Assembly: GCA_046563655.1 (NCBI GenBank)
Contig: CM102283.1
Span: 1,178,001-1,242,000, forward strand
DNA length: 64,000 nucleotides
Origin: Yuukianura sp. NJ FZ-2021
Lineage: Eukaryota
Direction: 5' to 3'
Shown: positions 2,359 to 30,187 of the stretch, in pieces
How the letters are laid out: the number at the start of each line of letters is the position of its first letter
How positions within the stretch are numbered: position 1 is the stretch's first letter
Position numbers and translations under genes: made by a program
The notes under the pieces: generated by a model
Database searches by the model: none
What the model was told of the DNA's origin: nothing
What the model saw: only the letters and a program-made list of their open reading frames with translations

Positions 2359-2616
2359 CCAGCCCCCTGCAAATGGCGCCCATAGCAACCAACGCAATTT
2401 TTGTTTGTGACGTCACCAGCTGAAAAAATACCGTAATCGTGAAAATGGAACCTGCTGGCATCTATGTAAACAAAATGTGTCATACGGGTTTCTCTAGGAC
2501 ACCATCAATAATGAGCAGAATTCCGGTATTTTTCAGCGAGTGACGTAATTTTTTTTTGACATGGCAACCAAACAAAGTTCCCATTCGCACTTCCTAGTAG
2601 TATTCTATTTACCTTG
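2359..2616 (-). mobile_element. 258-bp non-autonomous DNA element (hAT-like), inserted in P450 exon 2
   Basis: Flanked by ggcgacta/ggcaacta (8-bp TSD, 1 mismatch). A reverse-complement copy of the same length lies at 38253-38510. Internal inverted repeat acgtcac..gctgaaaaataccg. Confidence 0.85.
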
Positions 2617-3938: not shown

Positions 3939-5036
3939 GAGAAAAAAGTTTTTAAATTCGTAATGTTTTTTGAAAATTTTGTGACTCTCTTTAGAACAAG
4001 TGACGCTAACAGTGCTACGAGACCTGTTTATTGCAGGATCAGAGACGATAAGCACTGTGTTGTCATTTCTGTTCATGTTTTTAGCTGAATTTCCTCAAGT
4101 TCAGAACAAAATGATTGCAGAAATTGACAAGGTCATTGGAAGGTCGCGCCTTCCTTGTATCGAAGACAAGTCAAATGCCGTACACAGAAGCAGTAACACT
4201 TGAAGTCCTCAGACTCTCTTCAGTGTTACCAATTTCACTGTTTCGTAGTACCCACGCTGATTCTGAACTGGGTGGTTTCGTTATTCCAAAAAAACACTAT
4301 GGTCATTACTAACTTGTACAGTTGTCACTACGACATACAGTACTGGGGAGATCCAGAAAATTTCAGACCAGAAAGATTTAGATGCGAAGATGGACAGAAA
4401 ATTGTGAAACACGATGCCATGTTGGCTTTTTCAACTGGCAGAAGAGTTTGTCCAGGAGAGAATTTAGCAAGAACTCAATTGTTCTTGTTTAGCACCTCCA
4501 TTCTGCAGCAGTTCTACGTGACCTTTGACCCTGCAGCTAAACCGCCAACTCTCGAACCTCAACCGGGTATAGTCATGTCCACAGCACCTCATCAGCTAGT
4601 TTTTACAGAGAGAGAAAACTAACTTTTAAGTAATACTGGATTGATTTCTTAACTTGTTTTGAGAGCAGTATCGTGTTTAGAAATTTTCCATTTTCTAAAA
4701 ATTTCATTACAAGCTATTTAAAAAAAATAATCAACCATCACCGTAACAATTTCATCAAAATTGGACAAACCTCTTTCCTACGAAGACCTGTTGAATTTCA
4801 TTTTACGGCTTCATTTTTAGATAACGAAAAGCACAAATTTATTAGATTTTTGGAGTGTTAAACGTTGGGAGGCGAGAGGCGACGCTAATAAAGTGCAGCA
4901 AGACTTAGAGAATTCTGTGAAGTTGCTGAATTTGTGCAGCTGATCAGCAATTTCTTCGAAAGTTATTAAAATTTAAAAACAAAAGAAGATTATTTACAAG
5001 TTTGTCAAAATTTTGAAGAAAAAAAAACGTTTTTTT

Positions 5037-8125: not shown

Positions 8126-9763
8126 TTAGTAGAACCAAAAGGAAATAGAGAAGGAAGGAGTAAGACTTTTGACAAAGTGCCACCATTTAGGTGGAATGTA
8201 AAGCATTGACCCTGGACTTAGAACGACATCGGCGTAAGTAGCGCTTGACAGCAACGGAAAGTGAGTAAGGGCTGAAGGGTCTTCCATGTCTACTTGACTC
8301 GTGTTGAACAGCAAAGAATCGTTTTCATGTGGATTCAAGCGCTGGGATTCCGATGGCGGAAACAGACGAACAATTTTTGAGCCAAAGACTTGAGCCAAGA
8401 GATTGTGTTTTGGATCGTAATGGGTGGGGGTGACAGTGAAAGCTGGACCAAACCATGCATTGATCTCTACGTCTTCACTCTCTCCAAGAGAACAGTATTC
8501 TGGAACTCGAATGTCACGTTTCAGTTCAGGAATCTAAACAAAATTAAGTTGGCTTTAACTTATAGTCACTGAAAAGTGTACTAAAAATTGCAATACGATT
8601 GAAATTAGATAAGTGGACTTCATGCTGATTGCCCAGCTAAGCTACCTGATCAAAAAGCATGTGCTGAGCCATGTAGCCAATCGGAACAGAGTTGCTCGAG
8701 TCTTGCATGAACTTTTCAACAAATTCTCCAATCGTCATCAACTTTTGTGTCCAGTCTTCAGCAGTGTACTTCGAACCAATTTCGACTGGCACTGTCCTGG
8801 CTCCGTAATTCTAAAACAAAGAGCATATTTTGTTCGTGATCATAAATATTCAAGATGACTAAGAACTATAAACTTGTACCTCGTAAATATATTTAGGGCT
8901 CCAAAGATTCAGAGCAGGCCAATGCTCGAGAGCATGCGCTATGACAAGCGGCAGCTGAGGCTGAAAGTGTTGCTGATAAAAACATTCCAATGAAGGCTTG
9001 CTTATTCGCGGTACTTCCAGTTGCTTGCCGGGTAGAAAAATAAGGTTAACTTGGTTCGATAAAGAGGAAATTGAGCAGTCTTCGTCAGTCGTATCTAGTA
9101 AGGCCTTATGTTGCGTTTTCATTTTCTGAATCTGAAGTTCACTGGCGATGGCAGCTAGGATCTTTCCCACTGTAGGATCTCCCATTAGTAAGCCCGTGTC
9201 ACACCATTTGATGAGAGTTTGGCACTCAGCACTTCTTTGTTTTGAGAATATGATTATCTGCAAACATTGGAAACGATAAAGTTAGAACCAACGATTTCAA
9301 AAATTGAAACAAAATGTGTGGAGTTACTTTGACGAGCATAATCATGGCGTAAAATGTTCTCCAGTGGCACGGTACATCTTTCCAGTGTTTGGTATTAAGT
9401 TGCTCCCAAACATAGTCTTCTAGCATGTCAACAACAATGTCGTCATCGTCTCCTACGCCACAGTTTTTGACAAGACTGCCTCCACTGACATAGAATCCCT
9501 CATCGCCGGCTGTCGAAGAAGTCTGCGGGACTAAATTTGCTTTGAGGATGTCGTCGATGGCTGTTAGAAATCCAATAGGAACTCCAATTTCATTGTAGAC
9601 TGCACCAGTCATAGCCAGCAACTCATCACCTAAACAAATTTGAACTGTGTAAAACAAAAGACAAAACGGGTGCCTTCTCTTTCAAAAGGATCAAAACAGT
9701 GATTTTATTACGCGTCTTACCACTGGGAATCAAGTGCTTGATTAGATCAAAATAGTTTGACAT
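8126..9763 (-). CDS. KDM8: JmjC protein JMJD5/KDM8
   Basis: WEQLNTKHWKDV, RTVPVEIGSKY, NAWFGP..T.TPTHYDPKHNLLAQVFG and MLYIPPKWWHFVKSLTPSFSISFWF. The ATG is inferred at 9763. Confidence 0.92.
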
Positions 9764-10343
9764 TCTGCAACATCACGATAGACGGGTTTCAAGGAAAAAC
9801 GAAATGGAAAACAAAATTACGAAATAATAACAGCAGAGGCCGTAAGAATTTATGCATATGAAACCAAATGTAATCAGAACTCAAAAATTAAAAAACAAAA
9901 CGGTCGGTCAGACAAAAAGCTACTCACATAGTCTTCTCCACCAAAAATATATTCAGATCGTATATGGACACGTGGGGCCGTCTCAACATTGATAACATTG
10001 TCCACCGTCAACTAATTAAACATTATTAACCTCAATTTTAATTTGCTAATTTATAATTCAGTAACATGCAACTGTGATATTTTCTTTTTGTAACAAAACA
10101 ATGTTATTATAACATAAGTATGTGCTAAAGTGGTGTGTTTGTGTACGTTAAGTTTTTGGCGGGAGAAAGAAACAGCTGTTTTGAGTGGGAACTCAATTTA
10201 AATTTTCGATTTTTGAACAAAATTCTCTTTGTCTCTCTCTCAGTCACTTGTTCTTCTTATTCTGTTTTACTTACGATCATCAATTTGCAATAGCAAATTA
10301 ATTTTTTGTTGATCGTAAATAGCAGTGCTCAAAATACTTCAGA

Positions 10344-12226
10344 ATGAACCGTGGACCTTCTTCATCAAAGGGAAATCCTAGCCGTTCTTCTATAGCCGAA
10401 ATTAACAGAAGAAGATCATTTGGAGAGAATAACATTAATGCTGGAAGACTACGTGAATTTCCATGGATTTCAATCGACAAGTTCTATGGAGAGCATCTAC
10501 AAGCAACGATTTTCATTTTATCACATTGCCATACAGGTAACATCATCACATTCATTTTGTTTGGAATTCTACAATTTGTACGCTTGTAGTTTAAAATTTT
10601 GATTGTTCATGTCATTGTTGTTTATAGATCACATGGTGGGTCTGGATGAAGAAGAATTTTGGAATAAGTTAAACGAACCTGGAGTTCACTTGTACCTGCA
10701 CAGAATTACACCGGTGTTATTACCACTGTTCCAAGGCTATTTGCATGGAGAAGAGGGAATCCGGATGCTCCTGGAGAAGGGGAAAATCATTCCGCTGGAT
10801 ATCAACAGACCAGTTGATATTCGTGAACCGACAACAGGAACTGTAGTAAAAATGACTCTTTTGTCAGCGGGCCATTGTCCAGGATCAGTCATGTACGAAC
10901 GAGTGGTGACGTTTTCTCTTATACCCTTAATGGCAGTCTCATTTTTTTCAAATTACTGATTTGTGATTTAGGTTTCAATTCGAGTTTGACCAGCAATGCA
11001 TTTTGCACACTGGAGACTGTCGGGTCACTGTTAAGGACCTGAAGGCAATGGATTCTCTTCACTTCATTAATCGCTCAACGAATGGAACCGTCCAAAAAAC
11101 ACTTAAGCCCATAAGTCACCTGTATATTGACACAACCTTTTGCTCATCGCGTTCGCAACACGTAAGTTGCCCACCATCAGTGTGTTCAGTGTCGTTTCGA
11201 ATCTGAATGGAGGGTGTATTTTAATGGTTTTGAAGTCAGACGTGGAGACGTTGTTTTTAGTTTCCAGGAAGAGTAGATGCTGTGGAACGACTAATAGAAA
11301 TGGTGGAAACTTGGTTGAACCAGTCACGTAATAATCATGTCAACTTAATATTTGCAGGTGAGATAATTTTCTTGTCAATTTCATTACTTGAACTATAAAA
11401 ATAGTTATTTGATGTGATGTGAAAAAGAAAATTGTGTTTTACAGCTCGGTTTGCCCACGAGTTTGTTTTGCACGAATGCTACAAAAAGTTTGGAATCCAA
11501 TACCACGTGAATCCGCAACGATACGAAGCTTATCGACGCATTCCGGACTTATCCTTGGCAGTTACGCTTAATCCGAATTCAAGGTTCCATTTGTGTGAGA
11601 GGGAGTCGGTTAGTGCGACAGTTTTAGTTTCTGGATCAGTCGGTTATTAAGATTTTGTAGTATTTTCTTTTCTACTTCCTTAGCCATGTTTAGTCAATCT
11701 GATGAATGGCAGACCTCGCGGGAAGATTCTTCGAATCAAACTTTCGTCGTTGTGGTACATGAAGAATAGGAACGGACTCGGACCTTCTTGTGCTATAAAG
11801 CAGAACGAAGAAAAGAACGTGATCACCATTTGCTATGCAATGCATTCTTCACTGGACGAAATCAGTGCTATGATCGATTATCTGAAACCCAAAGTCGTTA
11901 CGCCGTTGGTTCTTCCTAAAGGAATGTCACGGAAGGAGGTATAAAATCAGGAAGTCAAATTAATTTCTTTCCCGGAATTAATTGACATTTTTATTTATAA
12001 TTTTATTTAGTTAAAATCGGAGTTACGGCGGAATGCCTGGGGAAATTATGTCTACGAGGACTACGAGAAAGGAATCGACAGCGAAACGATTTTGACGGTT
12101 AAGCGGCCAGTGGCAGTGACCAAACCAATGCCGGAGGATCAATTGCCGCCATCTTGTGAACCAGAACGAAAACGGACTAAACGACAGCTTCGCTGGACTC
12201 CTTCACCTTCTCCTCCACCTTCGTAA
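10344..12226 (+). CDS. DCLRE1C: Artemis / DNA cross-link repair 1C (MBL/beta-CASP nuclease)
   Basis: GRLREFPWISIDKF, SHCHT-DHMVGL, AGHCPGSVM, LHTGDCR, HLYIDTTFC and CYAMHSS. The last exon is 12011-12226. Confidence 0.88.
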
Positions 12227-13132
12227 CCTTACTATAACCAAAGTCATGAAGATCAATTATTTCCGGTTAGAATATACTTGATTACTGATTATTTTCCGTT
12301 TTCTAGTTTCATCTTAATATGAGCATTTGCTTGTACTTTGAAACAAGGAAAAGTTTTTTGTTTTGTTTTTTAGCTTTTAGGTAACAACCGTATGTACTGC
12401 CACTGGTTAGTGAACTAATTTACCAGTAAATCATGCTGGTGTAACCTAACAGTGTTTTATAAGCTGGGGTGTAGTAATTTATTTGAAGTTTAGTGCAGTT
12501 TTTTTATTTTGCTTTTGCATCTTGATTTCTTTGAAATATTGCTGGTGTGTAACTTTTTTTTTGTCAAGGTTTTGCTTACGAAAGTTTTAGTTTTTAGCAG
12601 TTTGATGGACGCTTCGGTTTCATGCAAACTTTGGATGGAACTGTAACGAAGATGACCAACGACTATTAGATTGCGTAATGCAGGAGAAGATGTTATATGA
12701 ATCAAGATAACACACAACTTAAGATTGGTCATTTTAATCTGCATGGCTTGTAGTTTCTTATTCAGCGTGGACTGTGGAGAAATTGTGGTCGTAAACGCAT
12801 TTTTAGCTCACCGTTTTCTGATATTTTTCCCAAAGAAACTTGAAATTTTTAGTCTTTTTTAACCTTTGGTCGGTTAACTCTAAAATTTTTGTTGAAATAG
12901 AGTTGATGGACTGACTGGACTGTTCATTCTTTCACCGCGTCTCATCATATCAACATCCAAGATTGGAAAAATTACACAAGGTTAACTAACCAACAGGTAA
13001 GGCTCTTCCTAATGGATTTTTATTAAAGTTGATTTATTTTGCTAAATTCATAATGTTTAGAAGTAGAATATGTGGGTTTTGTGCAAATATACAACAGCTC
13101 TTTTTTTATTGTTTGCAGAGTTGTGATCCATC

Positions 13133-15439
13133 ATGGACATCGTTTTTATTAAAAAGTTGTGCCTCCGTGTGTCATTGACCTCAACTTCTAAAGCAACGTG
13201 TCAACCAGTCCTTGTCTCCGTGGTCGCTCCTACCGACATACGAGAAGCCGCAGAAACAGACGACGTGAACCTCACTGTTGACTATGCTAAGCTAAGTGCT
13301 GAAATTACAGGAAGATGCGACGACAAATCATTTCCGACGTTATTAGATCTCGTCAAAGCTATCAGTGATCTTTGTCCTCCTGGAGTAACGATTGAAGCCG
13401 AACAAACTAGAGGTCACTACCGAGCGGGGTCAATTGGACTTGGACTGAGGAATGTTAAAAAGTCAAACTCCGACAACTATGAGCAGCAAGTACAACATGT
13501 TATCCAAGACATCAGAGTGTGTACCATCATCGGAGTAAATCCAGAAGAGCGATTTCAGAAGCAGTTCGTCGTGGTTGATGTCAAGTTCGGAGAAACGGAT
13601 TCCAGTATCTCCGAAATCGTTGATTTCGTTGCAGAGTTAGTCGAGTCTTCCAATTTCTTTACCGTCGAAGCTCTAGCTCATCGAATTGCATCACGAGTTC
13701 AGGATGTTTTTCAAGTTAAAGGAGATATCAAGGTGAATGTCACCAAACCGGATGCTATTACGTTTGCAGAGGGCGTTGGAGTGAGGGTGAACAGAAAGGA
13801 ACATGAAACATCGCTTTCGAAACCGAAGAGAGTTGTGGCTATAGAACCTCCATGTTGTGCCGTGGCAGGTGGCATACATTGCCTTTGGATCCAACATTGA
13901 ACCGCGTGTCGACTTCATTTCCAGAGCATTGAAACGAATTCACGATAATGAAAGAATCAAAGTAATGGACACAAGTTTCATGTACGAGTCACTCCCAATG
14001 TACTTCCTGGAGCAAGAATGTTTTTACAACGGAGTCGCCAAAGTTCTAACGACGTGGAACCAGTTTGAACTTCTACAAGCTTTGAAACAGATCGAAGTCG
14101 AAGTTGGGCGGGAGAATCGGTTCGAAAATGGGCCCAGGGAAATTGACTTGGATATTCTATATTATGTCAATGGTTATGGTGATGGTCCTGTTAGTACCGA
14201 TGCATTGACTATCCCACATCCTAGGATTCGCGAACGCGAATTCGTATTACGGCCACTCATAGAGTAAGTTTCAATTTCAGACCACTTTTTCATTTTATTA
14301 TTTGTTGTTAATTTGTATTTCCTTGGATTTGTTAGATATTAGGATTTGTAAAATATTTTATACAATTTTATATTTTATATTCATTTTATATTTATATTGA
14401 TTTTATTGAGTTATTTTATAAAATTGGGTTCTATATTGATAAAATAATTATTGTGTTTTGTTTTTCTAGTTTGCAGGACAGTTTCATGGAGGAGGATGTG
14501 GGAGCCAACCCAACTCTGATGCTGAAATCTCTAATGTCAAAGGGGCCATCGACTGTACAGAAGGTTCTTCCACTTTGGTCTCCGCAGCATCCTGAACCGC
14601 GCCAGCTCAAATGGAATTCAAAGACGTTCATCATGGGCATTCTGAACATGTCTCCAGACAGTTTTTCGGAACCTGGAATTACAAACGCTGAAAGAGCAGC
14701 GGAGGCTGCGCTGAAAATGGTGGCTGATGGAGTTGACTTGATTGACATCGGAGCAGTGTCGAGGAGTCCTGGACGCACAGAGTCCATGTCAACTCGAGAT
14801 GAAATTGCAGCGTTGACGTCCGTCATCAAGCTTCTGCGCGCCAAAAACGTCAAAGTGCCAATTTCAGTTGATGTGTTCAAGGCCGAAGTAGCGGAAGCAG
14901 CTATAAGAGCAGGGGCGGACATCATCAACGACGTTGGCATGGCGGTTCGTGACCCAGAAATGATTGAAGTTGCTGCCAAGTTGGGAGTTCCCATTGTCTT
15001 TATGCACACTCGCGGAAGTCCGTCGGACATACACAACTACACTGAGTACGACAATGACGACGTCGTAGATGGAGTCATCTCAGAGTTAAATCAAGTCGTC
15101 GAGAAGGCTATTACAGCGGGAATTTTCCGGTGGAACATTATTCTCGACCCGGGAATCGGTTTTGCCAAGACTGGAGAACAGAATTTGGAAATTTTGAAGA
15201 ACTTGAAAAAATTCAAGTCACCGGATTCTCCAGTTCGTGGATTTCCGCTGCTGATTGGTTGTTCCAGAAAGAAGTTCATTGGCACACTCACGGACGTTGA
15301 GGATCCGCTTCTGCGCGGTCCGGGAACCATGGCCTCTACTGCAGCATCGATTTGTGAAGGCGCTGATATCATACGAGTCCACGATGTATTAGAAAATATA
15401 CAAGTAGCGAAGTTTGCCGACGCTTTTTGGAGAAACTAA
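13133..15439 (+). CDS. FOL1: Trifunctional folate synthesis protein copy A (DHNA x2, HPPK, DHPS); intron 14264-14469; apparent +1 frameshift near 13850
   Basis: DHNA motifs TVDY, IGVNPEER, FTVEALA, VTKP. HPPK motifs AYIAFGSN, GPREIDLDIL, IPHPR..EREFVLRPL. DHPS motifs GILNMSPDSFS, IIND, DPGIGFAK, SRK, RVHD. Confidence 0.92.
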
Positions 15440-16248
15440 TTTTTCCAAAGGTAAAATTTGCAGCTATATTTCAAATTTTGATTTTTTTTTTAATCAAATT
15501 TTGATTCTGTTTTTTATATTTTGTGTAGAGACTTGGAGCTGAAAGCGTAAACTTGGATCCTTGGTCTTCGTCTGTAGTAAAACTTAAAGTAGGTTAATAC
15601 TAGAAATCTTGCATAATCCTTAGTATTTCCAATTTTTCCAAATTTCACGTCCCTATCTAAAATTTCCGTATCTAATGATCAAATTTTGGTATGAGGTTAG
15701 CAATGCTAATTAGATGATGCTAACTTTAGCATCATCTATGAAATTCGCTTTCCCGTTTACTCTTTCTTCAAATTAAAAATGAATTGAGTTCGATTCGGTA
15801 ACCTAATTAGTATTCAATCCCAGTAAAATCCCACTAAAGTTATGTTCAATTGCAGTAGTAACTTTACTTTACAGCCCAAATGGTTTTTTGAAGGTGCAAT
15901 TTAATTTAGCTTAAAAATTTAACTACTAAAAGGATGTATTTAGCTCTAAAACAGCAATAAGTATCGAATATCCTACGCTAATATAAATTAGCACTTAATT
16001 TAATTTTTCGCCAATAAAATTTAACGGTCGAAAACTCGAAAAGGTGTTTTATTTTATTTTTTTCAAAAATTATTTAAAAATGAAAATTCTCAACTATTTT
16101 TTCTTTTTAGTTCTTTGGTTTCAAAGGCCGCAGTAACTCAAGTCTTTACAAGTCAAGTCAAGGATTGACAGTATAAATTGATTATTTTTTAGAAAATTAC
16201 TGAAACCACAATAGCTAACACAGGTAATTTTGGAAGTTTTTCATTACG

Positions 16249-17312
16249 TTATTAAGTATCGTCAGATACTTATAGGGATCGTAATGGCCGTCCGTCCGTC
16301 CGTCCGCCGTCCGTCTGTCCGTCCGTCCGTCTGTCCGTCCGTCTGTCCGTCCGTCTGTCCGTCCGACTGTATACTAGCCACAACATCTCTGGAACCGCTG
16401 GACCGATTTTCAATCTGTCTTCACAGATGAACTACACATGGTCCAGGGGTGGACAAGTGGTTTCCGGTTTGACCGGAAGTGGCCAACTTCCGGGTCAAAG
16501 GTCAAGGTCAAGTACATTTTCGACGGAATTTGGAAAAGTTGCCTGTACAAAAGTTGTTCATCTCAATGAGAGGAGCAACTTTTTTGTCGCTGATGCTGAC
16601 CTTCGACGTACGGTTCTAGAGATATAGACGCTGCAAAGTTGCAAAATGGCGTCGCTCATACTACGCGCGTCTATAACTCTGGAACCACTTAACCGATTTT
16701 CAACCTGTCTTCGCAGATGAGCTTCACATGGTAGAGGGGTCACTAATCGGTCTCTGGTTTGAACGGAAGTGGCCAAATTCCGGGTGAAAGGTCAAGGTCA
16801 AGTACATTTTTAAGTATCGTCAGATACTTTCATTCAGAGAAAAATCAGTTTCTGGATTCATCTCAAGTGACCTCTATCGGTGTCAAAGGTGAAGGTTATG
16901 CTCCATTTATATTAGGGAAACGGACGGACAGACTCGGAAGGGGTTTGCGGAAATCCAGCTTTGATGACCTTGAGTGACCTCTAACGTGGTGAAATGTCAA
17001 AGACATTTTTTTTTGTACAAGTTGGGAAACGGATAGACCGATTTGGTAGCGGTTTACGGGGATCCGATTTTGATCACTTCTAGTGACCTCTAACAGGGTC
17101 AAGGCTCAAGGTCCTCTTTTTCTCTATAATTCGGAAAAGGATGGAACGATTTGGAAGTGGTTTCCAGGCATCGCTGTTTGACGACGCGAGGACTAAGATT
17201 TCTGTTTGACCTCTAACAATGTGAGAGATCTAGGTCAACAATATCTCGCGCGGGAACTCTCTATAATTGATCTGACGATACTTAGTTACATATCGTCTTT
17301 GCAAGAAGTTTA
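16249..17312 (+). mobile_element. Helentron-associated (DINE-1/HINE-like) non-autonomous element in the probable 5' UTR intron of FOL1 copy B
   Basis: 5' subTIR aagtatcgtcagat within a hairpin (aagtatc/gatactt), (GTCC/GTCT)n microsatellite at 16288-16365, and 3' subTIR atctgacgatactt at 17270-17283 followed by a short hairpin and T-run. Internal duplication 16385-16510 vs 16675-16810. Confidence 0.8.
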
Positions 17313-17441
17313 TTTTTTCTACTTAAAAGTGAAACTAAATTCTCAAGTCCATTGCTATTGAATTTGGAACCTCTAAATTCTAAAATGTTTCAAATTGATT
17401 CAATAGCATTCTAATTTTTTTGTTTTTCAGAGTCCGGAATC

Positions 17442-19852
17442 ATGGGTATCGTTTTCATTAAGAAATTGTGCCTTAGAGTGTCGCTCACTTCAGACCCGAA
17501 TCCGAAGTATCAACCAATCCAAATCTCCGTATTTGCGCCGTTCGATACTGCTAAAGCAGCAGATGCTGACGATGTTGCTTTTGCCCTTGACTATTCTAAA
17601 CTTGCTGTTGAAATTCAGAGAAGCTGCGACGATAAATCATTTTCGACATTACTAGATCTTGTCAGAACTATCAATGACCTTTGCCCTCCTGGAGCCATGG
17701 TTGAAGCAGAACAAAGTAGGGGTCACTGCAGAGCTGGAACAATCGGACTGCGACTAAAGAATGTTAAAAATCTGAAGGGCTACGAACATCAAGTTGAAAA
17801 TTATATTCAGGACTTACAACTTTGTGCCATCATCGGAATAAACGCAGAAGAACGAATTCAAAAGCAGACTATCGTTGTTGACCTTAAGTTTGGCGAAACT
17901 GATTCCGCTGCTGTATCGGAAATTGCTGATTTCGTTCAAGGTTTTTAATCAAAACAAAAAAAAACATTTTTCTACACAGGTTGTCCAATAACTCCACGGT
18001 CTTAATTTTGTAAAATAATTTGCAAAATTTGCTTCGCAATGCCTTTCTATGGTAATAATTTGTACTATGTAGTGTAATAGGAATTCCTGCAGAAATTGGA
18101 TTGAAGTAAGATTATTGGAAACCCTGAGTTATTGTACAACCTGTTGTAGGAAATACAATTTGGTTGTCAAGAAACCTTGATTTCGTTCCAGATCTGGTGG
18201 AATCTTCTAACTTCTTCACAGTCGAAGCTTTGGCTCACAAAATTGCTGCCCAAGTTCAAGTCGTTTTTGGTCTTAAGGGAGATATTTCTGTCGATGTCAC
18301 TAAACCTAACGCCGTTACATTTGCAAAGGGAGTTGGAGTGACTGTGACACGAACGGATACTGAATCGCTGATACCAAAAATGATTGAGGCTGCAGACGTT
18401 TCGGAAGTTGTGGCTTACATTTCCTTTGGATCCAACATTGAACCGCGTATCGATTTCATTTCCAGAGCTTTAAAACGGATGTCCAGTACTCCAGGCATGA
18501 AACTACTGGACACAAGTTTCATGTACGAGTCACTTCCGATGTACTTTCTGGAACAGGATTTGTATTACAACGGAGTAGCCAAAATTGAAACGACGTTTGA
18601 CCCATTTGAACTACTGCGGGCTATGAAAGAAATTGAAGACGAAATTGGGCGCCAAAAACGTTTCGAAAACGGTCCAAGAGAAATTGACTTGGATATTTTG
18701 TATTATGGGGCTCATCGTGTCAGTAGCGACGAACTGACCATTCCACGTCCAAAAACCTACCAAAGGGAATTTGTGTTGCGACCACTTGTAGAGTAAGTTT
18801 TAATGTCAAAGGTCAAAGGTCACGTTGTAAAATGAATTTCAAATTTTAACGTTAATTTTAAATGAAATTTGGTAAATTTTAGTTTGCAAGATGCGTACAT
18901 GGAAAATGTGATCGGGGTCAACCCAACTGTGATGCTGAAATCTCTTATGTCAAAGGGGCCATCGACTGTCCAGAAAGTTCTTCCACTTTGGTCTCCGCAG
19001 CATCCTGAATCGCGTCAACTCAAATGGAATTCAAAGACGTTCATCATGGGCATTCTGAACATGTCTCCAGACAGTTTTTCAGAACCTGGAATCACAAACG
19101 CTGAAAAAGCAGCGAAGGCTGCGCTGAAAATGGTGGCTGATGGAGTTGACTTGATTGACATCGGAGCTGTGTCGAGGAGTCCTGGACGAACAGAGTCCAT
19201 GTCCACTCGGGATGAAATTGCAGCGTTGACATCCGTCGTCAAACTTCTGCGCGCCAAAAACGTCAAAGTGCCAATTTCAGTTGATGTGTTCAAGGCCGAA
19301 GTTGCGGAAGCAGCAATAAGAGCAGGGGCGGACATTATCAATGACGTTGGCATGGCAGTTCGTGATCCAGGAATGATTCAAGTTGCAGCAAGTTTAGGCG
19401 TGCCGATTATTCTAAAGCACATGAGAGGAAGTCCAATGAACATGCGGAATTTAACGGAGTATGACAACGACGACGTCGTAGGCGTAGTCATCTCAGAGTT
19501 AAATCAGGCAGTCGAAAAACTAATTGCTGCTGGAGTATTTCGGTGGAACATTATCGTGGACCCGGGAATTAGTGGTCCGAAGACGGCATTACAGGATTTA
19601 CAAATTTTACAAAATCTGAACAAGTTTAGTTCGCTGGAGTCTCCACTTCGCGGAGTTCCGTTGCTTGTTGGTTGTTCCAGAAAGTCGGTAATTGGTGCTA
19701 TAACGGGAGTTGAAGATCCACTTTTGCGTGATCCAGGAACACTGGCTTCCACGGCAGCATCAATTTCTCAAGGTGCGGATATCATTCGTGTCCATAATGT
19801 TGAGCAAAACATGCAAGCTGTAAAGTTTGCAGACACATTTTGGCGAAAATAG
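17442..19852 (+). CDS. FOL1: Trifunctional folate synthesis protein copy B; exons 17442-17940, 18192-18792, 18883-19852
   Basis: Collinear with copy A and fully open after removal of two GT-AG introns. Several motif substitutions are present (IPRP, DPGISGPK, RVHN). Confidence 0.92.
17937..18179 (+). mobile_element. 243-bp hAT-like MITE forming FOL1-B intron 1
   Basis: Termini caaggttt...aaaccttg, perfect 8-bp TSD atttcgtt (17929-17936 and 18180-18187), and inner IR acaggttgt.caataact. A homologous copy lies at ~22995-23190. Confidence 0.85.
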
Positions 19853-20120
19853 TTTAATAAGTTTATATATTCTAGTGGTAAAAAATTGCGATTATCAGAA
19901 AACTTGTAAGTTAAACAAAAATTAAATTTTGCCGAGACTGGAAGGCAAAAGCCGAACGTAGTTGCTGCTTTTTTCCTTCTCAATAATAAAAGTAGAATTT
20001 TATATGGAAAACTTTTGCATCTTTATTTTTCATAACTAGTATACATAAATTTCACTTTCAACATTTTCAACATAACAACTTTTACCATTTTGAAAATATT
20101 TTCATAATTTATAAAGTTTG

Positions 20121-21343
20121 CTAGGAGGTTACCGTAATCTGAGAAGATCTCTTGCGCGTTAGCCTTCTTACCTTGTGAAGAGCAACTGAACCGTTCCAGT
20201 AAGCTGAAATTTTGAAATATAAAATTGGAATGCAAAAAAATGCGAGTTTTGCAAAAAAAAAATGAAAGGGAAAGAGAAATTTTCTTACAGTCGTAGCAAG
20301 GATTTTCACTAATAACTCTTGGAATGGTTTCTTTATCCCACGCATCATGTTCTTCAAGGTTCCCACCTAAAGATTTTGGTAGGATTTCTGCTCCAATATT
20401 TTTAGCAAGGGATTCCATATTTCTATGGACATGAACTCGCTTCTGAAGTTTTTTCGACAACAATTTCACAGCTACTTTGTAGACTGGCCAGAATATAAGA
20501 GGAACGTTCACGAAGTGGAATCCTGCCGCCTTCATTGGAAACATTTCCTACTCAGAAAACAAATTTTTTTAGCATTCCTTAAAATTAGTCATATTGTAGA
20601 AACTAAAACTTTAGTCATGTTCATGCGCAGAACGCATTTGGCACAACTCTTGGTTTACTAAAAGGTAAGGTGTATCAATGATAATTAAGTTGGTTTGTTA
20701 ATTACAGTGAAGAGTTTGACGGTAAAGATGAGTGCTTGAGGCGTGAATTGGCGAGCAATGGAAAATGGGAATCCAGACAAGTCTGCGATAAAGACGAATC
20801 CACTGAGTTGGACGGAAACGTCTTGAAAGTATTCTTCCGTGAAAAATGAGTATGCCAACTGTAGCTGCTGGAGAGAACCAATTTTAGTGTCCCAGTTTGT
20901 CGTACTGAAGAAAGCAACAATTGCCCCGTCCCTCCTGTTTTTGAGTATGCGCATAACGTCCATGTCGTAGATAGGGATGAAGTCACACGGTCGAATTCGC
21001 TCCACGAGGTGGAGGTTGACAAAGATGCTGTCGTAGTACTTTTCAATGGCCACGACGGTGGCATGTGGACAGTACTTTTTACAGCGCAGGAACTTCACTA
21101 AGAATCCACTGTCAGTTTTTACCGGCAGAGGGAATTTCTTTTCTACAAATAATTACAAAATACTCAATTTTGAATATTTTTTTTTTAATTTTTGCAGTAA
21201 CCAAGTAAAAAATGGCGAAAATTTTTGGAATTACCTAAAAGAATTTGTCGCACAATTTCGAGCAATTGTGGAATTGTATGCTCCTTTGACGTATTTGCTG
21301 CATCTGCTGCTGGAGAGGGGAAAAAGCATTGCTCCATTGTCAT
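20121..21343 (-). CDS. CRAL-TRIO / alpha-tocopherol transfer protein-like, copy 1 (4 exons)
   Basis: D.GFLVKFLRCKKY, Q.SGFVFIADLSGF, FP.K..GFHFVNVP, KKLQKRVHVH and ILPKSLGG. Confidence 0.88.
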
Positions 21344-22505
21344 TTCGAAAAAATTATTTGAAAAAAAAATTGAACAATTTTGTTTAAAAGGTTTTCGGCG
21401 ATTCCTTGACCAGGCAAAATCCAACTGCTGGAAAATGATTTGGAAAAACGGATTTTATTAAAGAAAACTTTCTCACAGTTTAAAAGTTTAAAACGAACAT
21501 GTTTTAAAAGATTGGCGCAAATCCTTCCGAAAGGACTGCAAGCATGGGAAAACATTTTTATATAAAAAATTACGAGTTAATTAAACTCAAATAAGCTAAT
21601 AAATTTCGAACATGTTGAAATAAAGCATTCACGTAAATTTACAAAACGGAACTATGAAATTATGAGATTATACAGATAGAGCGGTATTTTCCGCTTTTGC
21701 GATTTTATTTATTCCTCTTGGTTTTAACTTTTTCCTGCAATGTGAAATTCTGGCTCAAAATTTTGATTTTTCAACTCTGATGGGAACATTTGGCTTCAGG
21801 GTTAACGCAAAATTTATCTTTGAAAAGATTAACGTAACCGTGTGACCGCTGCAGGTCAGTTCTGTGGACTTGTTAAAAAATGTACCGGAATCTTCGTTGG
21901 GGCATTGTAGACGTCATAACTTAACTTTGACTTAAGCAACTCTTTGTGTGCATAAAAAGTAAAACCGAAAATGTTTTTTGAGTTATTGAAGTTTTGCAAA
22001 AATTCAAATGTCTTTCTATATCTTTTTGGGAAGTCAACATTTTCCAGTCAAAAAAACGAAAATACTAAGTACCGAAACGCGTTATGAATGTTCGTTTACA
22101 TTGGTTCAAATTCGATTTTAATATGCGATAAAAGTATTCTTAAAAATGAATGAAAATTAAACATCTAAATCTCGAAAGTCGGAGTTAATAGTTGTGAATA
22201 CGTTTTATTCAGAACTCATTCTTGAAAAATTAAACCTCGAAAACACATTTTCCAAGATACCATTTCTACATTACCACGTTTAATTGTATGTATTGTGCAA
22301 TTTCCTTTACTTTGTTTTCGAGATGAACAAAAAATTGGAAAATTTAAATAATGGACAGCAGAGTTAGTATTCACAAAAAGTCTTGTATATCTTTACTATT
22401 TTCATTAGGGTGTATAATTTCACTTTCAAAATTTTCATTTTGGCAACCGATCATTTCAAAAATATTTTCGTAATTTAGAAGAGTTTTCTATGCGGTCATC
22501 ATAAT

Positions 22506-23904
22506 CTATGAAGATCTCTTGCGACGCATTCTTCTCGCTCGATGAAAACCAACGGAACCGTTCCAGTAAACTAAAATTTTGACACAAAGTATATTGGAAT
22601 GCCTTTGGAAGAAACAAAAATTGTGTTTAATATATCAAATTTTGGAAAATTGCTTACAGTCATAGCATCGATTTTGATTAATAACTTTTGGAACAATTTC
22701 CTCATCCCAAGCTTCATGTTCTTCAAGGTTCCCGCCTAAAGATTTCGGTAGGATTTCTGCTCCGAGGCTTTTTGCAAGGGATTCCATGTCTTTATGGATG
22801 TGAACTCGCTTCTGAATTTTTTCGGCAGTAATTTCACACCTACTTTGTAAACTGGCCAAAATATAAGAGGTACGTTCACGAAGTGGAATCCTCCCGCCTT
22901 TATTGGAAACATTTCCTGCACAGAAAATAAAATTTTTGTAACATTCTTAAACGTAAAGTCCAAGTTGAGGAATATTCTTCGTAAACGAAGGGTACGTAAA
23001 CAAAAAAGTTTTTTGTACACAAGGATATCCAATAACTCTACGTTTTTAAATTTGTTAAATAATTTGCAAAATTTTCATCGCCAAGTCATGTAATAGGAAT
23101 TGGTGCAGAGTTTGAAATAAGATTATTCAAAACCCTTAGTTATTGGGCAACCTGTTGTAGGAAATACAATTTGGTTGTCAAGGAACCTTGATTCTTGCAT
23201 ACAAACTAAAACCTAAGTAATATGCGCAGAAGGCATATTTGACACAACTGCGGCTTAACTGAAGCTTAGGACATAGGATAAAATTATTTTGTTAATTACA
23301 GTGAGGAGTTTCATGTAAAACTTGACTGCTTGAGGTGTGAATTCGCGAGCAATGGAGAATGAGAATCCAGACACGTCCGAGATGCTGACGAATCCACTGA
23401 ATTGGACGGATACATCCTGAAGGATTTCCTCCATGAAGAAGGAGTAGGCCAACTGTAACTGCTGAAGGGGACCAATTTTAGTGTCCCAGTTTGCCGTACT
23501 GAACAAGGCAACTCTTGCACCGTCCTTCTTATGTTTGAGCGTACGTAGAACGTCCATGTTGTAGATGGGCAAAAAATCACTTGGACGAATTCCCTCCATG
23601 AGTCGTAGGTTGACGAAGATGCTGTTGTAATAGTTTTCAATGGCAACCACGGTAGCATGTGGACAGTACTTTTTACAGCGCAAAAACTTCAGTAGGAATC
23701 CATTGTCGGTTTTCAGTGGTAGAGGAAAATTCTTTTCTACAAAAAGTTATGATATTATGAGTTTAGAAATTTTTTTTAAAAAAAAAATGATAGTTTTTGA
23801 AATTTCAATATCAGCCAAGTAAAAAAGACAAAAAAGTTGTGGATACCTAAAAGAATTTGTCGCACAGTTTCGAGCAATTCCGGTATTTTCTGTTCCATTG
23901 ACAT
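22506..23904 (-). pseudogene. CRAL-TRIO copy 2, 5'-truncated, with a frameshift
   Basis: Exon 1 lacks its N-terminal part and the conserved upstream block. An A-run near 22820 is one base short, which may be a sequencing error, and the stop is 6 codons early. Confidence 0.7.
22995..23190 (+). mobile_element. Second, more decayed copy of the MITE that forms FOL1-B intron 1
   Basis: Aligns by eye with 17952-18179, ending caacctgttgtaggaaatacaatttggttgtcaag.aaccttg. The paralogous intron near 32905 shows the empty site. Confidence 0.8.
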
Positions 23905-24697
23905 AATTATAATAATAATATAATATAATTTGGGAATCCACTCAAAAGTCGCACAGTTTGCAACTCAATTCTGAGCGTATAGTCAGAAATAGAGAAGGGA
24001 ATGGAAAAATGGGCGATTTACTCTGACTTCTGAACTTGCGTCAAAGACAGATCCAAAGTATTTTGAGTCAGAATCAGCTCTTCCCGACCTCCCTATTAAT
24101 CCGGTTTTGATTAATTTCTAATTCAAATGAAAAATAACCAGAGTTTTAATTGACCTTGACAACTTTTAGTTTTAATGAGACTAGTGGCAAGACTTGTTCC
24201 GAGTGCTGAAGATTACAGAGAAGAAAAGACACGCTCTAATATATGTAACCGCGCATGGGACGTTTTTAAACAGCCCAAGGTTTTTTTTTTCGCATGCAAG
24301 GAGATTTTCTTTTAAACTGCAATTGAAAAAGTTTCTTAATCTAAAGCCAAAGAAGGGGATTGAGTCTTTTGGAAAACCCAAGAATTGAAAGTCATTGAAT
24401 TGTATCAACATTCGGTGACCTTGGTGGATGACCACCATAGTCTGGATATACAACTAAACATTATTTTTATTCAGTTTAATTCAATTTAGATATTTAAATA
24501 AGCATGAAACATACACTTAGAAAATAAAGGTGAAGGCTGAAATTTAAAGTTAAAATCTAAGCTTTAGACTGAATTGAATTCGAAAAATGAAGCAGCTTTG
24601 TATCTTCACTACTTTCATAATACGTATTAACTTCAGTTTCAAAATTCCCAATTTGACAACAGCATCTCAAAAATATTTTCATAATTTGTAAAGTTTG

Positions 24698-25905
24698 CTA
24701 TGAGGAGATCATCATCTGTGAAGATCTCTTGCGCGTCAGTCTTCTCGATCGATGCAGAGCCACGGAACCGTTCCAGTAAGCTAAAATGTCGGAATAAATT
24801 AAAGGGGAACGTTATTGGAAGAATAAAGTTTGTGTTTTAAAAAAATCCAGTTCTGAAAAATTTCTTACAGTCATAGCACGGATTTTGATTAATAACTCTT
24901 GGAACAATTTCCTCATCCCAAGCATCATGTTCTTCAAGGTTCCCGCCTAAAGATTTCGGTAGGATTTCTTGTCCAAGGCTTTTTGCAAGGGATTCCATGT
25001 CTCTATGGATGTGAACTCGACTCTGTAGTTTTTTCGGTAACAATTTCACACCTACCTTGTATATTGGCCAAAATATAAGAGGTACGTTCACGAAGTGGAA
25101 TCCGCCTGCTTTCACTGGAAACATTTCCTAAGCAGAAAGTAAATTTTTTCTAACATTCCTTAAATTAATGTTCCATTTTAGGAATATTGCGCAGAACGTA
25201 TTTGTCTCAATTCCTGCGAAATGTGAATTTGACTTAATCAACTAATCTTAGAAATTTCATTATTTTGTTAATTACAATGATGAGTTTGATGCAAAACTTG
25301 AGTGCCTGAGGCGTGAATTCGCGAGCAATGGCGAGTGAGAATCCAGACAAGTCTGAGATGGTGGCGAATCCACTGAGTTGGACAGATACGTCCTGGAAGT
25401 ATTCTTCCGCGATAAAGAAGTAGGCTAACTGTAACTGCTGGAGTGAACTAATTTTAGTGTCCCAATTTGACATACTGAAGTAGGCAACTGTTGCCCCGTC
25501 CTTTTTGTGTTTGAGCATGCGCATAACGTCCATGTCGTAAATGGGCAAGAAGTCACTTGGTCGAATTCCCTCCACAAGTCGGAGGTTGATGAAGATGTTG
25601 TTGTAGTAGTTTTCAATGGCCTCGACTGTTGCATGTGGGCAGTACTTTTTACAGCGCAGGAACTTCACTAGAAATCCACTGTCAGTTTTTACCGGCAGTG
25701 GGAACTTTTTTTCTAAAAAAAAGTCATGAAGTTAGAAAACTAAAAGACTTTAAAATTTTCACAGTAATGAAGTAAAAAAAAAGGCGAAAAAGTTAGGAAT
25801 ACCAAGAAGAGTTTGTCGCACTATGTCGAGCAATTCTGGAATTTTCTGCTCCTTTGACATAATTGCTGCATCTGCCGCCGGAGAAGAGGAAAAGCACTGC
25901 TCCAT
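24698..25905 (-). CDS. CRAL-TRIO / alpha-TTP-like, copy 3
   Basis: Same motifs and 4-exon structure as copy 1, with frames intact. Confidence 0.88.
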
Positions 25906-27149
25906 TCTCAATTAGAAAAAAATTCAAAATAAAAAAAAGAACAAATTTAAAAAAAAAATCGAGTTTTTCCTTAACTACGCAAAATCCAACTGCTGGAAAA
26001 GGATGTAGGAAGGCGGATTTTATTGAAGAAAAATTTCTCACAATTTAAAAGCGTCTTTCTTTAAAAAATTGGCGCAAATCCTTCCGAAAAGATTGCAATG
26101 ATGGGAAAACATTCTTATTTCAAAAATTATGAGTTAATTAAACTGAAATAAGCTAATTAATCTAATCTAAATAAAATGGACAAATTTTTTTAAAAATTGG
26201 TTTAAGGTTTCCCTTGACTAGGCAAAATTCAACTGCTGGAAAAGGGTTTGGGAATGTGGAATTTATTGAAGAAAAATTTCTCACAGTTGAAAAGTTTAAA
26301 ACAGTCATTTTTTAAAAGATTGGCGCAAATCCTTGCGGAAGGATTGCAATGTTGGGAAAACATTCTTATATCAAAAATTACGAGTTAAATAAACTCAAAT
26401 AAGCTAATTAATTCCGAACATGTTAAAATAAAGCATTAACGTAAATGGAATCATGAGATTATTCAGATAAAACCGTATTTTCCGCTTCTGGAATTTTATT
26501 TCTCTTTCCTGAGATGTGAAATTCTGGTTCAAAATTTTTGATTCCTCAACTTTGATGGGAACATTTGACATCAAGGTCAACGCAAAATTTGTCCTTGGAA
26601 TGATTGACGTAACCATGTGACTGCTGCAGGTCAGTTCTGTGGCCTTGTTAAAAATGTACCGGAATCTTCGTTGACGCATTGTGGAAGCCATAAATAACTT
26701 TGACTTAACCAACTCTTTGCAACCACAAAATGTTCTTTGAGTATGGCTTTGCGGATATTAAAATATCTTTTGATATCTTTTTGGGAAATCAACATTTTCT
26801 CATCGTCCAAACTAAATCGCGTTCTAAATTTTCGTTCGCCTTGGTGCAAAGTCGAACTTAAAATGAAATAAAAATGTTTTGAAAAAAAATGAATGAAAAT
26901 TAAGCACGTAAATCCCGTAAATCAAATGTTGTTTTCAGAACTCATTCTGTAAAAATGAAACCTCTAAAACATTTTTCCCAATATACCATTTCTAGATAAT
27001 CACGTTTAATTGTGTTTATTGTGCAATTCCGTGTACCTTGTTCTAAAGATTAAGAAAAACTGGAAATTTTAAATTCCGGACAGTAGAACTAGCAAGCAGA
27101 AAAAAGTCTTGTATCTTTATTATTTTCATAACTAGTGTACATCTTTTAG

Positions 27150-27472
27150 CATGGATGTAATTGTAGTAGTTTTCAATGGCCATGACGGTGGCATGTAGAC
27201 AGTACTTTTTACTGCGCAGGAACTTCACTAGGAATCCACTATCAGTTTTGACCGGTAGAGTAAATGATATTACCAATTTAAACATAGCTATTAATTAAAT
27301 TTTAACTAAATGGTAGCTTTTAAAATTTCCTCTGCAATGAAGTAAAAAAATGCAAAAAGTTGGGGATACCTAAAAGAATTTGTCGCACCATTTCGAGCAA
27401 TTCTGGTATTTTCTGTTACTTGGACGTAACTGCTGGATCTGCCGCCGGAAGAAGAGAATTGGAATGTTCCAT
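27150..27472 (-). pseudogene. CRAL-TRIO copy 4 remnant
   Basis: Exon 1 has an in-frame TAA. Exon 2 stops after IENYYNY and joins directly to 3' flank sequence, indicating a large internal deletion. Confidence 0.85.
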
Positions 27473-30187
27473 TGTCCTTTAGAGAGACAATTTCAAAAGA
27501 TTTTTGTTAGATTTTTAATTTTTAATTTTTAATTAGACTTTTATTTTAATTTTAAACTTTTAATTTAATTATGAAATTTTAATTAAATAATTTTTAATAA
27601 ATTTTTTAAAAAGTGTTTTTGAGTTATTCTTGACTAGAAAAATCCAAAATGTTTGGAAAAAAATTCGCTTGGGTGGATTTTATTGAAAAAAAAATTTCTC
27701 ACATTACGCGTCACCAATTAAAACCTTGGCCTGCGCAAATGCTTCCCAAATGGTTGTGATGATGGGAAATCATTTTTATATCCAAGGTTACGATTTAATT
27801 ACACTCAACTAAGCTAATTACTAAAATGTTGGAGTGTTACGTCATTCCTTTAGCGAACTTTTGTGTGAAATGTGAACTTATAGTTCGAAAGTTTTGATGT
27901 CTCACGTTCGACGCCGACATATGGCATCATAATGAACTAAAAAGTCCTTGGAAATACTGACGTATGACTGTGTGACCGCTGCATGTCACTTTTATGATAC
28001 TGTGTGACCTTGAGCAAAAAAATGCTCCAGGAGCATCATTGACGAAGACGTAGTTTCGTTTATATTACGCAACTCTTTGTGAGTTAAGCGTCATCCAATG
28101 AACAAAATAAAAAGAAAAGGCAAGGTTTTTTGAAATTGAAAAATTGCTTTAGGAAATCGGCGTTTTTTTCGTGCCAACTAGAAAACGGAAGAGTAACAAA
28201 ACGCTTTTGAATGTTGGTTTATTTTGGTTTTTTCAATTTTGAGTCTAACTATAAATATAAACAAATGAAAAGACTTGAAAATCCGTAAATCAGAATTAAT
28301 GTTAGAAAATGCGGTTTCTTAAGAATGCTTATCCAAGTTTTTGCTCTTATATATAAATACTTAATGTCTGTCTAAAAACGTAAGGCAGTTTGTTTACATA
28401 AATTGTCGCAGATTTTGCAGTTGTTGCCATACGTTACTGCAAGGTTGAATGCAATCTGCGCTACATCATTTGTAACCAGTAATCATCCGAATATAAATCA
28501 CTAAAAATAATATCGGAATCATAGGAATCATCCCCAATTTTAGTATTATTATTGGTTGATGAATGCTGTTCCGCATAAACTCTCCACTTCCTCCAGGGTT
28601 GACTTTGGTTTAAAGAAACCAATAGTTTGTCCAAATCAATTATTGAGTAAAACATGGTTTAAATCAATAATCAAGTGTTCTATTTTCTTCTTTTTTTAAA
28701 TAAAAACCGTCCTAACACAAATATACAACACAAAACAAAAGAAATTGGAAATCTCCAGGATTTTTCGGGAAAATAGTGAAGCAACCTGTCGATATCACTG
28801 TCTCCAATTCCTATTGCTGTATTAATCTGTTAGTTTGTTTCAGATTAAAACAGAATTAAAAGAGAAGATTATAAAATTTTGTAAATTTCCTGTGATATAA
28901 TTTTAAATATTTCTATTCTTTGCACTTTGCTATACTCATTTTAGTAATTAACACAACAACGAAATGGAATTAATTAACTAAAAGGAAATAGTGAAGCAGA
29001 AAACCGCAACGGTAAAATAAGCGCCAAAGATTTCAGAAATGATACTGCAGTGATTTACGTTTAAAAATATCTGACGCATGCGCCGGTGTATACATGAGGT
29101 TGCGCACGCGCAACCCAACCCGCGCCGAAAAAATCAAAAATATACGATTGTGAAAATAAATAAACTGCCTTGCGTTTTTAGACAGACATTAATTTATTTT
29201 TTCAGTTTTACCAAGCCAAGTGTGATTGTGTGCGCTGTCCAATTTCCAGCACTTTGATATAAAGATGAACCACAAACGTAAGGTCATCTATGGTTGCAAA
29301 TATGAATAAATCCGGTCGTTACCCGGAGTATACGAAAGTAGTGAAGCACTTAACCTTTGACCCGGAAGGAGTTGACCCACCGGGATGGTATTCAATAGTG
29401 AACTTCCGTCCGACCCACGGTGTTGAGACTGGTGAAAACAGATCCCGCAAATGCTTAGCCGTTTTGGAGATAATTCCCGCCATCGGCAAGACAGACAGAC
29501 AAGGTCAAGCCAATAAGTAGCTTCTCTACTTAATAAAAAAAAAGAACCGATAATAAATTCCAATTCTGGAAAAAAAAAATTAGTGAAAAAACACACGAAC
29601 AAAATATTAATCTACTTGAGTAATATAATTATTAAAAAATAAACTGTAAGAGTTAAGTGAGTAAAGATGGCTTTTAGATTACAAATGGTAGGTAGACTCC
29701 TTCGCTATTCCAAAAAAAATAAGTAGTACGCAAAAAAAAAAATTCAAAATACTAATCTATCTGCATAATATCAACAAAAATATGACAATTATAAACTATA
29801 GAATTAAAGCTGCTTTGAGAAGGTTTTTTAAAAGTAAAATTTAAAGTGAAAAATCATATTTCTAAAGGCGAAAGTCTGTTATTTTCGCAAAACCTACAAT
29901 TGGAGCTATATTAAATTCAACAGTCCGTCAGCGACATTTGCGTATGACGGCGAAAGTCTGAATCTAAACAGAATTGAAGAAATTAAAAAATAAAGAAAAT
30001 GTAGGTAAAACTGCAGCATAAGCATGAAATTGATTGGAAAAATTGAAAAATTTCTTTACTACTTCCATAACTAGTGTACATAATTTCACTTTCAATATAG
30101 TCATTTGACAACCCAGTTTTTTAAAAACACTTTCATAATTTACAAAGTTTGCTATGAGGTCATCACCAAGTCTGAGGGTCCCTTGTA

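Follow-up and report, generated by a model that had tools for sequence, protein, structure and literature searches.

How does an animal chromosome come to carry genes for a pathway that animals are expected to lack? The absence of dihydropteroate synthase (DHPS) from animals is the textbook basis of sulfonamide selectivity and of the status of folate as a vitamin. Two tandem genes, here called FOL1a and FOL1b, nonetheless lie within a 64,000-nucleotide (nt) stretch of contig CM102283.1 (assembly GCA_046563655.1, Yuukianura sp. NJ FZ-2021, positions 1,178,001 to 1,242,000 of the forward strand; this whole stretch is hereafter the window), and both carry two FolB units of the dihydroneopterin aldolase (DHNA) type, a hydroxymethyldihydropterin pyrophosphokinase (HPPK) domain and a DHPS domain in the order known from fungal FOL1 proteins. 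Our analysis, which works from DNA and protein sequence throughout, makes it quite likely that they represent an old, chromosomally integrated and selectively maintained fungal-type FOL1 of an arthropod lineage that was later duplicated, partly homogenised and supplied with a transposon-born intron. That this lineage runs a working pterin branch on a fungus-derived gene, making dihydropteroate from its own GTP-derived pterin and para-aminobenzoic acid (pABA), is a more tentative proposition, which we take seriously but stop short of calling probable.

Two tandem genes with the domain order of fungal FOL1

Both genes lie on the forward strand. As placed from open frames and the raw sequence, FOL1a (13133-15439) runs from an ATG at 13133 to a stop codon at 15437-15439, and FOL1b (17442-19852) from an ATG at 17442 to a stop codon at 19850-19852. 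The coding pieces of FOL1a are 13133-13834, 13869-14263 and 14470-15439; the first two are separated by a frame break (13835-13868), examined below, and the last two by a 206-nt phase-2 intron at the HPPK/DHPS boundary (14264-14469). FOL1b comprises exons 17442-17940, 18192-18792 and 18883-19852, the last two separated by a 90-nt phase-2 intron at the same boundary (18793-18882). In both genes the boundary intron follows RPLI or RPLV, and its flanks, GA/GTAAGT...TAG/TTTG, are identical. Without introns the conceptual products have 688 residues (FOL1a) and 689 residues (FOL1b) and no internal stop; the FOL1a reading also requires omission of the 34 nt at 13835-13868, while all domains of FOL1b share one frame after conceptual splicing.

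Pfam profiles recovered the order FolB-FolB-HPPK-DHPS in both genes with scores far over the curated cut-offs. For FOL1a these were 103.8 bits for FolB (PF02152, two stretches), 115.6 for HPPK (PF01288) and 236.1 for Pterin_bind (PF00809, the DHPS part); for FOL1b they were 51.1 bits for FolB in two stretches with a further 27.8 past an intron, 113.9 for HPPK and 220.8 for Pterin_bind. The best match to a solved structure was the DHPS of Bacillus anthracis (1tws, E 1.6e-54).

The duplicated block comprises 13084-15442 and 17391-19855, starting 49 nt 5' of the FOL1a ATG and stopping 3 nt past the stop codon. Its upstream end (13084-13132, forward strand; FOL1b counterpart 17391-17441) includes a pyrimidine tract and CAG, conserved in both copies 14 nt before the ATG, as a candidate acceptor of an intron in the 5' untranslated region (UTR); 5' UTR introns are thus plausible in both genes. 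Between this candidate acceptor and the ATG, FOL1a has an in-frame TGA, so the protein would lack an N-terminal extension; fungal FOL1 proteins likewise begin just ahead of the first FolB strand. An earlier note on this DNA, made from the sequence alone, had described two tandem genes of DHNA-DHNA-HPPK-DHPS layout with a common phase-2 intron after RPL(I/V) and no N-terminal targeting extension, and all three descriptions hold up against the Pfam domains, the matching intron flanks and the upstream TGA, respectively.

The stretch 16014-17516 between FOL1a and FOL1b consists of very high-copy repeats, with read depth up to about 200 times the local level, and includes a (CCGT/CTGT)-type microsatellite and tandem units of about 109 nt.

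Constraint on both copies and the interrupted frame of FOL1a

The alternative that survives best accepts the transfer and holds that the genes are decaying or have been repurposed: FOL1a would be a pseudogene by frameshift, or else a fusion in the course of splitting at the folB/folK boundary, FOL1b would be weakened in HPPK and DHPS, and neither would support folate synthesis today. We consider this unlikely. The ratio of nonsynonymous to synonymous divergence (Ka/Ks) between the two copies is 0.10-0.26 in every domain, and it is 0.07-0.20 against the orthologue on metagenome contig L001 (described below) where Ks can be estimated, Ks against L001 being otherwise saturated. Between the copies Ks is about 1.2 (0.8 in HPPK) outside one forward-strand tract, 14506-14952 in FOL1a and 18919-19365 in FOL1b, which takes in the linker together with the N-terminal half of DHPS. 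There 424 of 447 nt are identical (95%, against about 70% elsewhere) and Ks falls to 0.1-0.3. The tract looks like the product of recent gene conversion between FOL1a and FOL1b, and so recent an exchange between the copies speaks against decay.

Conservation of individual residues points the same way for FOL1a. A column counted as fungal-invariant when 29 or all of the 30 fungal FOL1 proteins chosen for the comparison agreed in it. FOL1a retains 100 of the 118 such columns, FOL1b 94 of 118 and the L001 orthologue 88 of 104; within FOL1a, 54 of 64 DHPS and 29 of 31 HPPK invariants are kept. The motifs DPGIGFAK and RVHD are intact in FOL1a, L001, fungi and the B. anthracis DHPS, and FOL1b lacks both the GFA and the D of RVHD. 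Past the break in FOL1a there is no stop in 455 codons, and FOL1b keeps its full frame, as noted above, after conceptual splicing.

The break itself deserves attention. FOL1a is not a single open frame: frame 1 is closed by a stop at 13898-13900, and HPPK lies in a frame that is open only from 13845. The interruption falls in the linker, variable in length, that joins FolB2 to HPPK; FOL1b and L001 are uninterrupted there. Excising the 34-nt GT..AG stretch at 13835-13868, or 37 nt, restores the frame and gives KPKRV-VAYIAFGS, these two being the only frame-restoring GT..AG pairs; loss of one base near GCAGGTGG restores it as well. A separate start codon for an HPPK-DHPS protein was considered and rejected: there is no in-frame ATG from 13845 to the conserved VAYIAFGS. 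Short-read contigs carry a G>A difference at 13854, inside the stretch, and since they cover that position the stretch is present in those runs; no indel was seen near 13835-13868 in the best 12 of 222 rows of the short-read contig comparison. Three readings can be given: a real lesion (a pseudogene, or a fusion splitting at folB/folK), a micro-intron or a consensus error, and a tiny intron or a single-base consensus error would each remove the break as an argument for decay. The state of a neighbouring gene bears on the choice. In the second of two tandem P450 copies upstream (2601-4622, especially 4170-4215) the frame is broken twice by a single base, both sites falling in a span of about 120 nt and one of them in an A7 run; the first copy (53-1816) is open. 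Either these breaks are indel errors of the assembly consensus or the copy is a young pseudogene undergoing real decay, and we count them among the points in favour of the decay reading.

Several observations count against functional maintenance. FOL1a is interrupted at 13835-13868, and an intron of 34 nt would be unusually short because those of the adjacent P450 measure about 50-65 nt, the 37-nt candidate being shorter than these too. The first FolB unit retains only 4 of 8 invariant columns in FOL1a and 3 of 8 in FOL1b. FOL1b is altered at H351R and E356Q in HPPK and, in DHPS, by the change of GFA to SGP, F635V and D671N; its private departures from fungal invariants number 8 against 3 in FOL1a, and the C-terminal half of its DHPS has evolved faster relative to L001 (Ka 0.36, against 0.23 for FOL1a). 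A related metagenome animal has a degenerate DHPS fragment, described below, and the fungal-type fusion has split repeatedly at folB/folK (PMC4224340, in the part of that study drawn on here). Enzyme function of FOL1a and FOL1b is an inference, and a working pathway keeps the tentative strength stated at the outset.

An orthologue on a second contig and affinity to fungi

We searched named proteins of 565-2000 residues and scored 8000 candidates, of which 154 matched at E<=0.001; the best 120 were listed. For the DHPS part, the top relatives among these 120 were FOL1 proteins of Mucoromycota, chytrids and Glomeromycota at 44-49% identity, and none of the 120 bore an animal name ('Siphonaria sp. 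JEL0065', which occurs among the matches, is a chytrid). A search without length limits over 1.84 billion representatives returned one match at 68% identity (P0242, 273 residues); the next ones stood at 45-51%, and all others reached at most 53%. We examined the clusters of 20 proteins, 11 of them with a source name; the names were fungi, the oomycete Aphanomyces and Telonema, and none was an animal. Named matches overall comprised fungi, oomycetes, algae and plants, archaea, a dinoflagellate and Telonema, closer ones being exclusively metagenomic, and a protein atlas search gave bacterial DHPS clusters only.

P0242 is encoded on L001, a metagenome contig of 7143 nt. The contig opens within the second FolB unit, reads into HPPK unbroken and continues into DHPS; at the same codon position as in the window genes it has an 88-nt phase-2 intron, again with the flanks GA/GTAAGT...TAG/TTTG. 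P0242 and the window proteins also have DIGAV(S/T)R.PG in common where fungi have DIGG.S.RPN. Downstream of the gene and on the opposite strand, L001 carries exons for a C2H2 zinc finger and for a BTB domain, an arrangement that we take to be typical of arthropod lola/broad-type genes. Because L001 shares both the gene and its boundary intron, both should be older than the split of the window species from the L001 animal. Contig L002 (1-2725), from the same metagenome, carries a degenerate DHPS fragment of 83% identity, with 64 of 651 positions gapped. This fragment adjoins a Peptidase_M64-like (IgA-peptidase-like) gene; Peptidase_M64 is a mostly microbial family, and this may be another transferred gene.

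For the phylogeny, 53 rows (the 3 arthropod sequences and 50 of 391 proteins, 40 named and 10 unnamed) and 722 columns were analysed in IQ-TREE under LG+C20+F+G4 with a quick search. The 40 named rows were selected to represent fungal phyla as well as oomycetes, green plants and Telonema; short DHPS of bacterial type, FPGS-DHPS fusions of archaea and a 1456-residue chytrid protein were excluded. The three arthropod sequences grouped as one clade (SH-aLRT, the Shimodaira-Hasegawa-like approximate likelihood-ratio support, 100), and a larger clade (96) unites them with all fungi to the exclusion of oomycetes, Telonema and plants. We rejected a bacterial origin on the basis of this tree and of the four-domain fungal architecture.

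What the tree says about the donor is more limited, and here a second group of findings tells against a straightforward fungal transfer. The arthropod clade is weakly sister to Ascomycota (84), and its stem is long (1.22). A tree constrained to keep the 43 fungal-side rows together, with the arthropods outside, is worse by 1.54 log-likelihood units, and the approximately unbiased (AU) test does not reject it (p=0.455). The sampling lacks holozoan, nucleariid and amoebozoan sequences, and partial animal gene models of 177-563 residues could hide behind the 50%-identity representative P0242. Because of the AU result, the weak link to Ascomycota and the long stem, the tree settles neither donor nor direction nor the question of vertical descent; it shows affinity to fungi, neither nesting inside them nor a donor. 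The earlier note had proposed horizontal transfer, probably from a fungus, with similarity searches and phylogeny as the check. Nearest named relatives and the grouping at 96 both proved to be fungal as proposed, and transfer gained further from the lack of animal names among the listed relatives, from the L001 orthologue and from the contigs of organism B presented below; what did not carry over in full is the fungal donor, since a position outside all fungi was not rejected.

This leaves room for the idea that the gene descended vertically from the opisthokont ancestor, the four-domain form surviving only in this arthropod lineage. In the part of PMC4224340 drawn on here, the folB-folB-folK-folP form is found in fungi and in Fonticula and the ancestor of Opisthokonta is inferred to have already had the fusion, which would suit such descent, as would the AU result and the long, deep branch of the arthropod clade. 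The same part of that study reports that sampled Metazoa lack a complete pterin branch and that the sampled holozoan protists Capsaspora and Sphaeroforma have split folB-folB and folK-folP genes. Vertical descent would therefore require independent loss in essentially all other animal lineages together with retention of the unsplit form here, and neither the 120 listed relatives nor the 20 examined clusters yielded an animal name. As a matter of parsimony, one gain would be far more economical, and we hold vertical descent to be very improbable.

Reports of such a gene in arthropods are also lacking in what we read: we found none of FOL1, HPPK or DHPS in an arthropod genome in the literature, though supplementary tables of large transfer screens might list one. 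The main texts of PMC5490193 and PMC13342648 mention neither folate nor dihydropteroate, and PMC6275457 mentions folate solely for ticks and their symbionts.

Integration in the chromosome and a probable repeat-derived intron

Profile searches place the FOL1 pair between Artemis/KDM8-type genes, represented by JmjC and DRMBL domains upstream, and a CRAL-TRIO array downstream, as had been described from the open frames. Short-read contigs form a tiling path that starts in the coding part of FOL1b and reaches the last CRAL-TRIO exon. Contigs of organism B (run X5, from a second study) cover 17441-18147, reading from exon 1 into the repeat intron, 18150-18693 and 19801-20262, so that FOL1b is present in organism B in addition to the orthologue on L001; contigs of organism A cover 19325-20219 and 19824-20376. 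Run X5 is independent of the assembly, whereas the organism A runs may be its source and are hence not independent. GC content at third codon positions of the FOL1 genes is 0.40-0.46 against 0.37-0.54 in adjacent exons, and overall GC content is also in the range of the neighbours.

A further tie to the host is an intron found in FOL1b only (17941-18191, forward strand, 251 nt), almost all of which is a host repeat present in multiple copies (about 17955-18182). A second copy of this repeat lies at 23022-23193 (forward strand) within an intron of a CRAL-TRIO gene. An exact 35-mer of the element occurs twice in the window against none expected (none in 100 shuffles), read depth is about 50-100 times the local level at both copies with a spike at 18018-18518, and read joints at 18162->23170 and 18027->23088 connect the two. 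The element has internal inverted repeats of 19 nt that are 95% complementary. These results bear out the claim of the earlier note that a repeat, there called a miniature inverted-repeat transposable element (MITE), is common to FOL1b and a neighbouring animal gene, and also its argument that this sharing speaks against contamination.

The ends of the intron suggest how it arose. It starts directly behind TCGTTCAAG (17932-17940), and its last 9 nt are TCGTTCCAG (18183-18191); the two form a direct repeat in which 8 of the 9 positions agree. FOL1a has no intron at the corresponding site. Removal of the intron joins CAA G/AT and gives ...DFVQ-D-LVESSNFF in FOL1b, to be compared with ...DFVA-E-LVESSNFF in FOL1a. 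This is the signature of an intron born by transposon insertion, in which each copy of the target-site duplication would have supplied one splice site. Introners offer the closest parallel, in that 17941-18191 amounts to a multi-copy element plus one copy of the 9-nt direct repeat and its excision restores a frame like that of FOL1a; the difference is that we have here a single case, with predicted splicing.

Contamination or a chimeric assembly joining a fungal fragment to animal DNA has in its favour that none of the listed contigs spans 13057-13256, towards Artemis, and is almost certainly wrong given the host repeat in introns of both FOL1b and a CRAL-TRIO gene, the overlapping short-read contigs of two studies, the neighbour-like composition, the orthologue whose neighbours on an unrelated contig are BTB and C2H2 genes, and a duplication and gene conversion that took place in situ.

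Proposed history and comparison with known systems

We propose that an ancestor of the arthropod lineage acquired a FolB-FolB-HPPK-DHPS gene from a fungus or other holomycotan. The transferred gene would have settled in the chromosome carrying a spliceosomal intron at the HPPK/DHPS boundary, and its vertical inheritance would reach back beyond the divergence from the L001 animal. In the window's lineage it may have been duplicated in tandem long ago, as the Ks of about 1.2 suggests, with the 447-nt tract exchanged later, and FOL1b may have gained its second intron through insertion of the host repeat.

Animals form the dihydroneopterin precursor via GTP cyclohydrolase I. If the genes work as their domains suggest, the aldolase domain would convert 7,8-dihydroneopterin, its substrate coming from the product of the animal's own cyclohydrolase, to 6-hydroxymethyl-7,8-dihydropterin; HPPK would transfer pyrophosphate from ATP onto the hydroxymethyl-dihydropterin; and DHPS would couple the pterin to pABA from diet or microbes to give dihydropteroate, or to pABA-glutamate to give dihydrofolate. 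A dihydrofolate synthase (DHFS) step is required unless DHPS takes pABA-glutamate. The outcome would be partial independence from dietary folate.

Transfers from fungi to arthropods are known, for example of carotenoid synthase/desaturase genes in aphids and spider mites. Those cases resemble the present one in that a fungal-type metabolic gene was domesticated in an arthropod, duplicated and is intron-bearing; they differ in the pathway, the window genes belonging to that of a vitamin. Compared with fungal FOL1 and the Fas protein of Pneumocystis, the window genes agree in their four Pfam domains and in the order of these, equally lack an N-terminal extension, retain 94-100 of the 118 invariant columns and show the 44-49% DHPS identity to Mucoromycota, chytrid and Glomeromycota proteins reported above for the top relatives among the best 120 of 154 matches. 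Unlike fungal FOL1, they stand in an arthropod chromosome as a tandem pair with a degenerate first FolB unit, their DHPS loop reads DIGAVSRSPG in place of a DIGG.STRPN-type motif, FOL1a has a frame break and FOL1b is without the GFA motif. The folB-folK gene of Branchiostoma, as presented in the part of PMC4224340 drawn on here, is likewise a pterin-branch gene amid native animal genes that was interpreted as a horizontal transfer. It is, however, prokaryote-like, lacks folP and represents a partial branch, whereas the window has the whole DHNA-HPPK-DHPS unit in fungal-like form.

A chromosomal, intron-bearing and selectively maintained DHNA-HPPK-DHPS gene in an arthropod lineage would be a clear exception to the animal rule. 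If the pterin branch does work on a fungus-derived gene, the animal would be directly sensitive to sulfonamides, and the locus would show a transposon-born intron inside a transferred gene and a fusion possibly breaking at folB/folK, a boundary at which fungi and holozoans have repeatedly divided it; both events are rarely caught. Such a gene would bear on the nutrition of small arthropods living in soil or litter, on ecotoxicology, where sulfonamide residues could hit the animal itself besides its microbes, and on the ways in which genes transferred from eukaryotes to animals are domesticated, here by acquiring an intron from a host transposon, by duplicating in tandem and by gene conversion.

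Neighbouring genes and the identity of the host

Upstream of FOL1a are the two tandem CYP2-clan cytochrome P450 genes already mentioned (53-1816 and 2601-4622, forward strand), a Cupin_8/JmjC gene on the reverse strand (8126-9681, Pfam domain 8126-8533) and a DRMBL gene of the Artemis/SNM1 type on the forward strand (10323-12226, Pfam domain 11684-11944). The best named single-domain matches of a P450 exon were proteins of the springtails Orchesella, Folsomia and Allacma at 47-50% identity, with metagenome proteins at 52-54%. Since this neighbouring exon matches springtail proteins, the host is an arthropod, most likely a springtail or another early-branching hexapod that lacks a close annotated relative.

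Downstream of the FOL1 pair, the CRAL-TRIO array occupies 20023-39013 on the reverse strand with at least 7 paralogues, Pfam CRAL_TRIO domains being found at 20023-20547 and 23255-23746. Each paralogue has a conserved exon of about 155-165 residues, and adjacent copies are 75-89% identical in DNA. A Rab-escort/GDI-like gene, also downstream, was read by eye without a domain search. A single-exon GBP-like open reading frame of 534 residues lies at 41678-43282 on the forward strand; its only homologue of near-equal length is one metagenome protein at 59% identity with a precomputed Pfam assignment to PF02263, which we take to be the guanylate-binding-protein domain, and the source of this homologue may be an animal of the L001 kind. 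A Ty3/gypsy-type retrotransposon at 54532-60587 on the reverse strand has long open gag-like (502 residues) and pol (1639 residues) frames, and its GC content of 0.47-0.50 is far richer than that of the remaining window.

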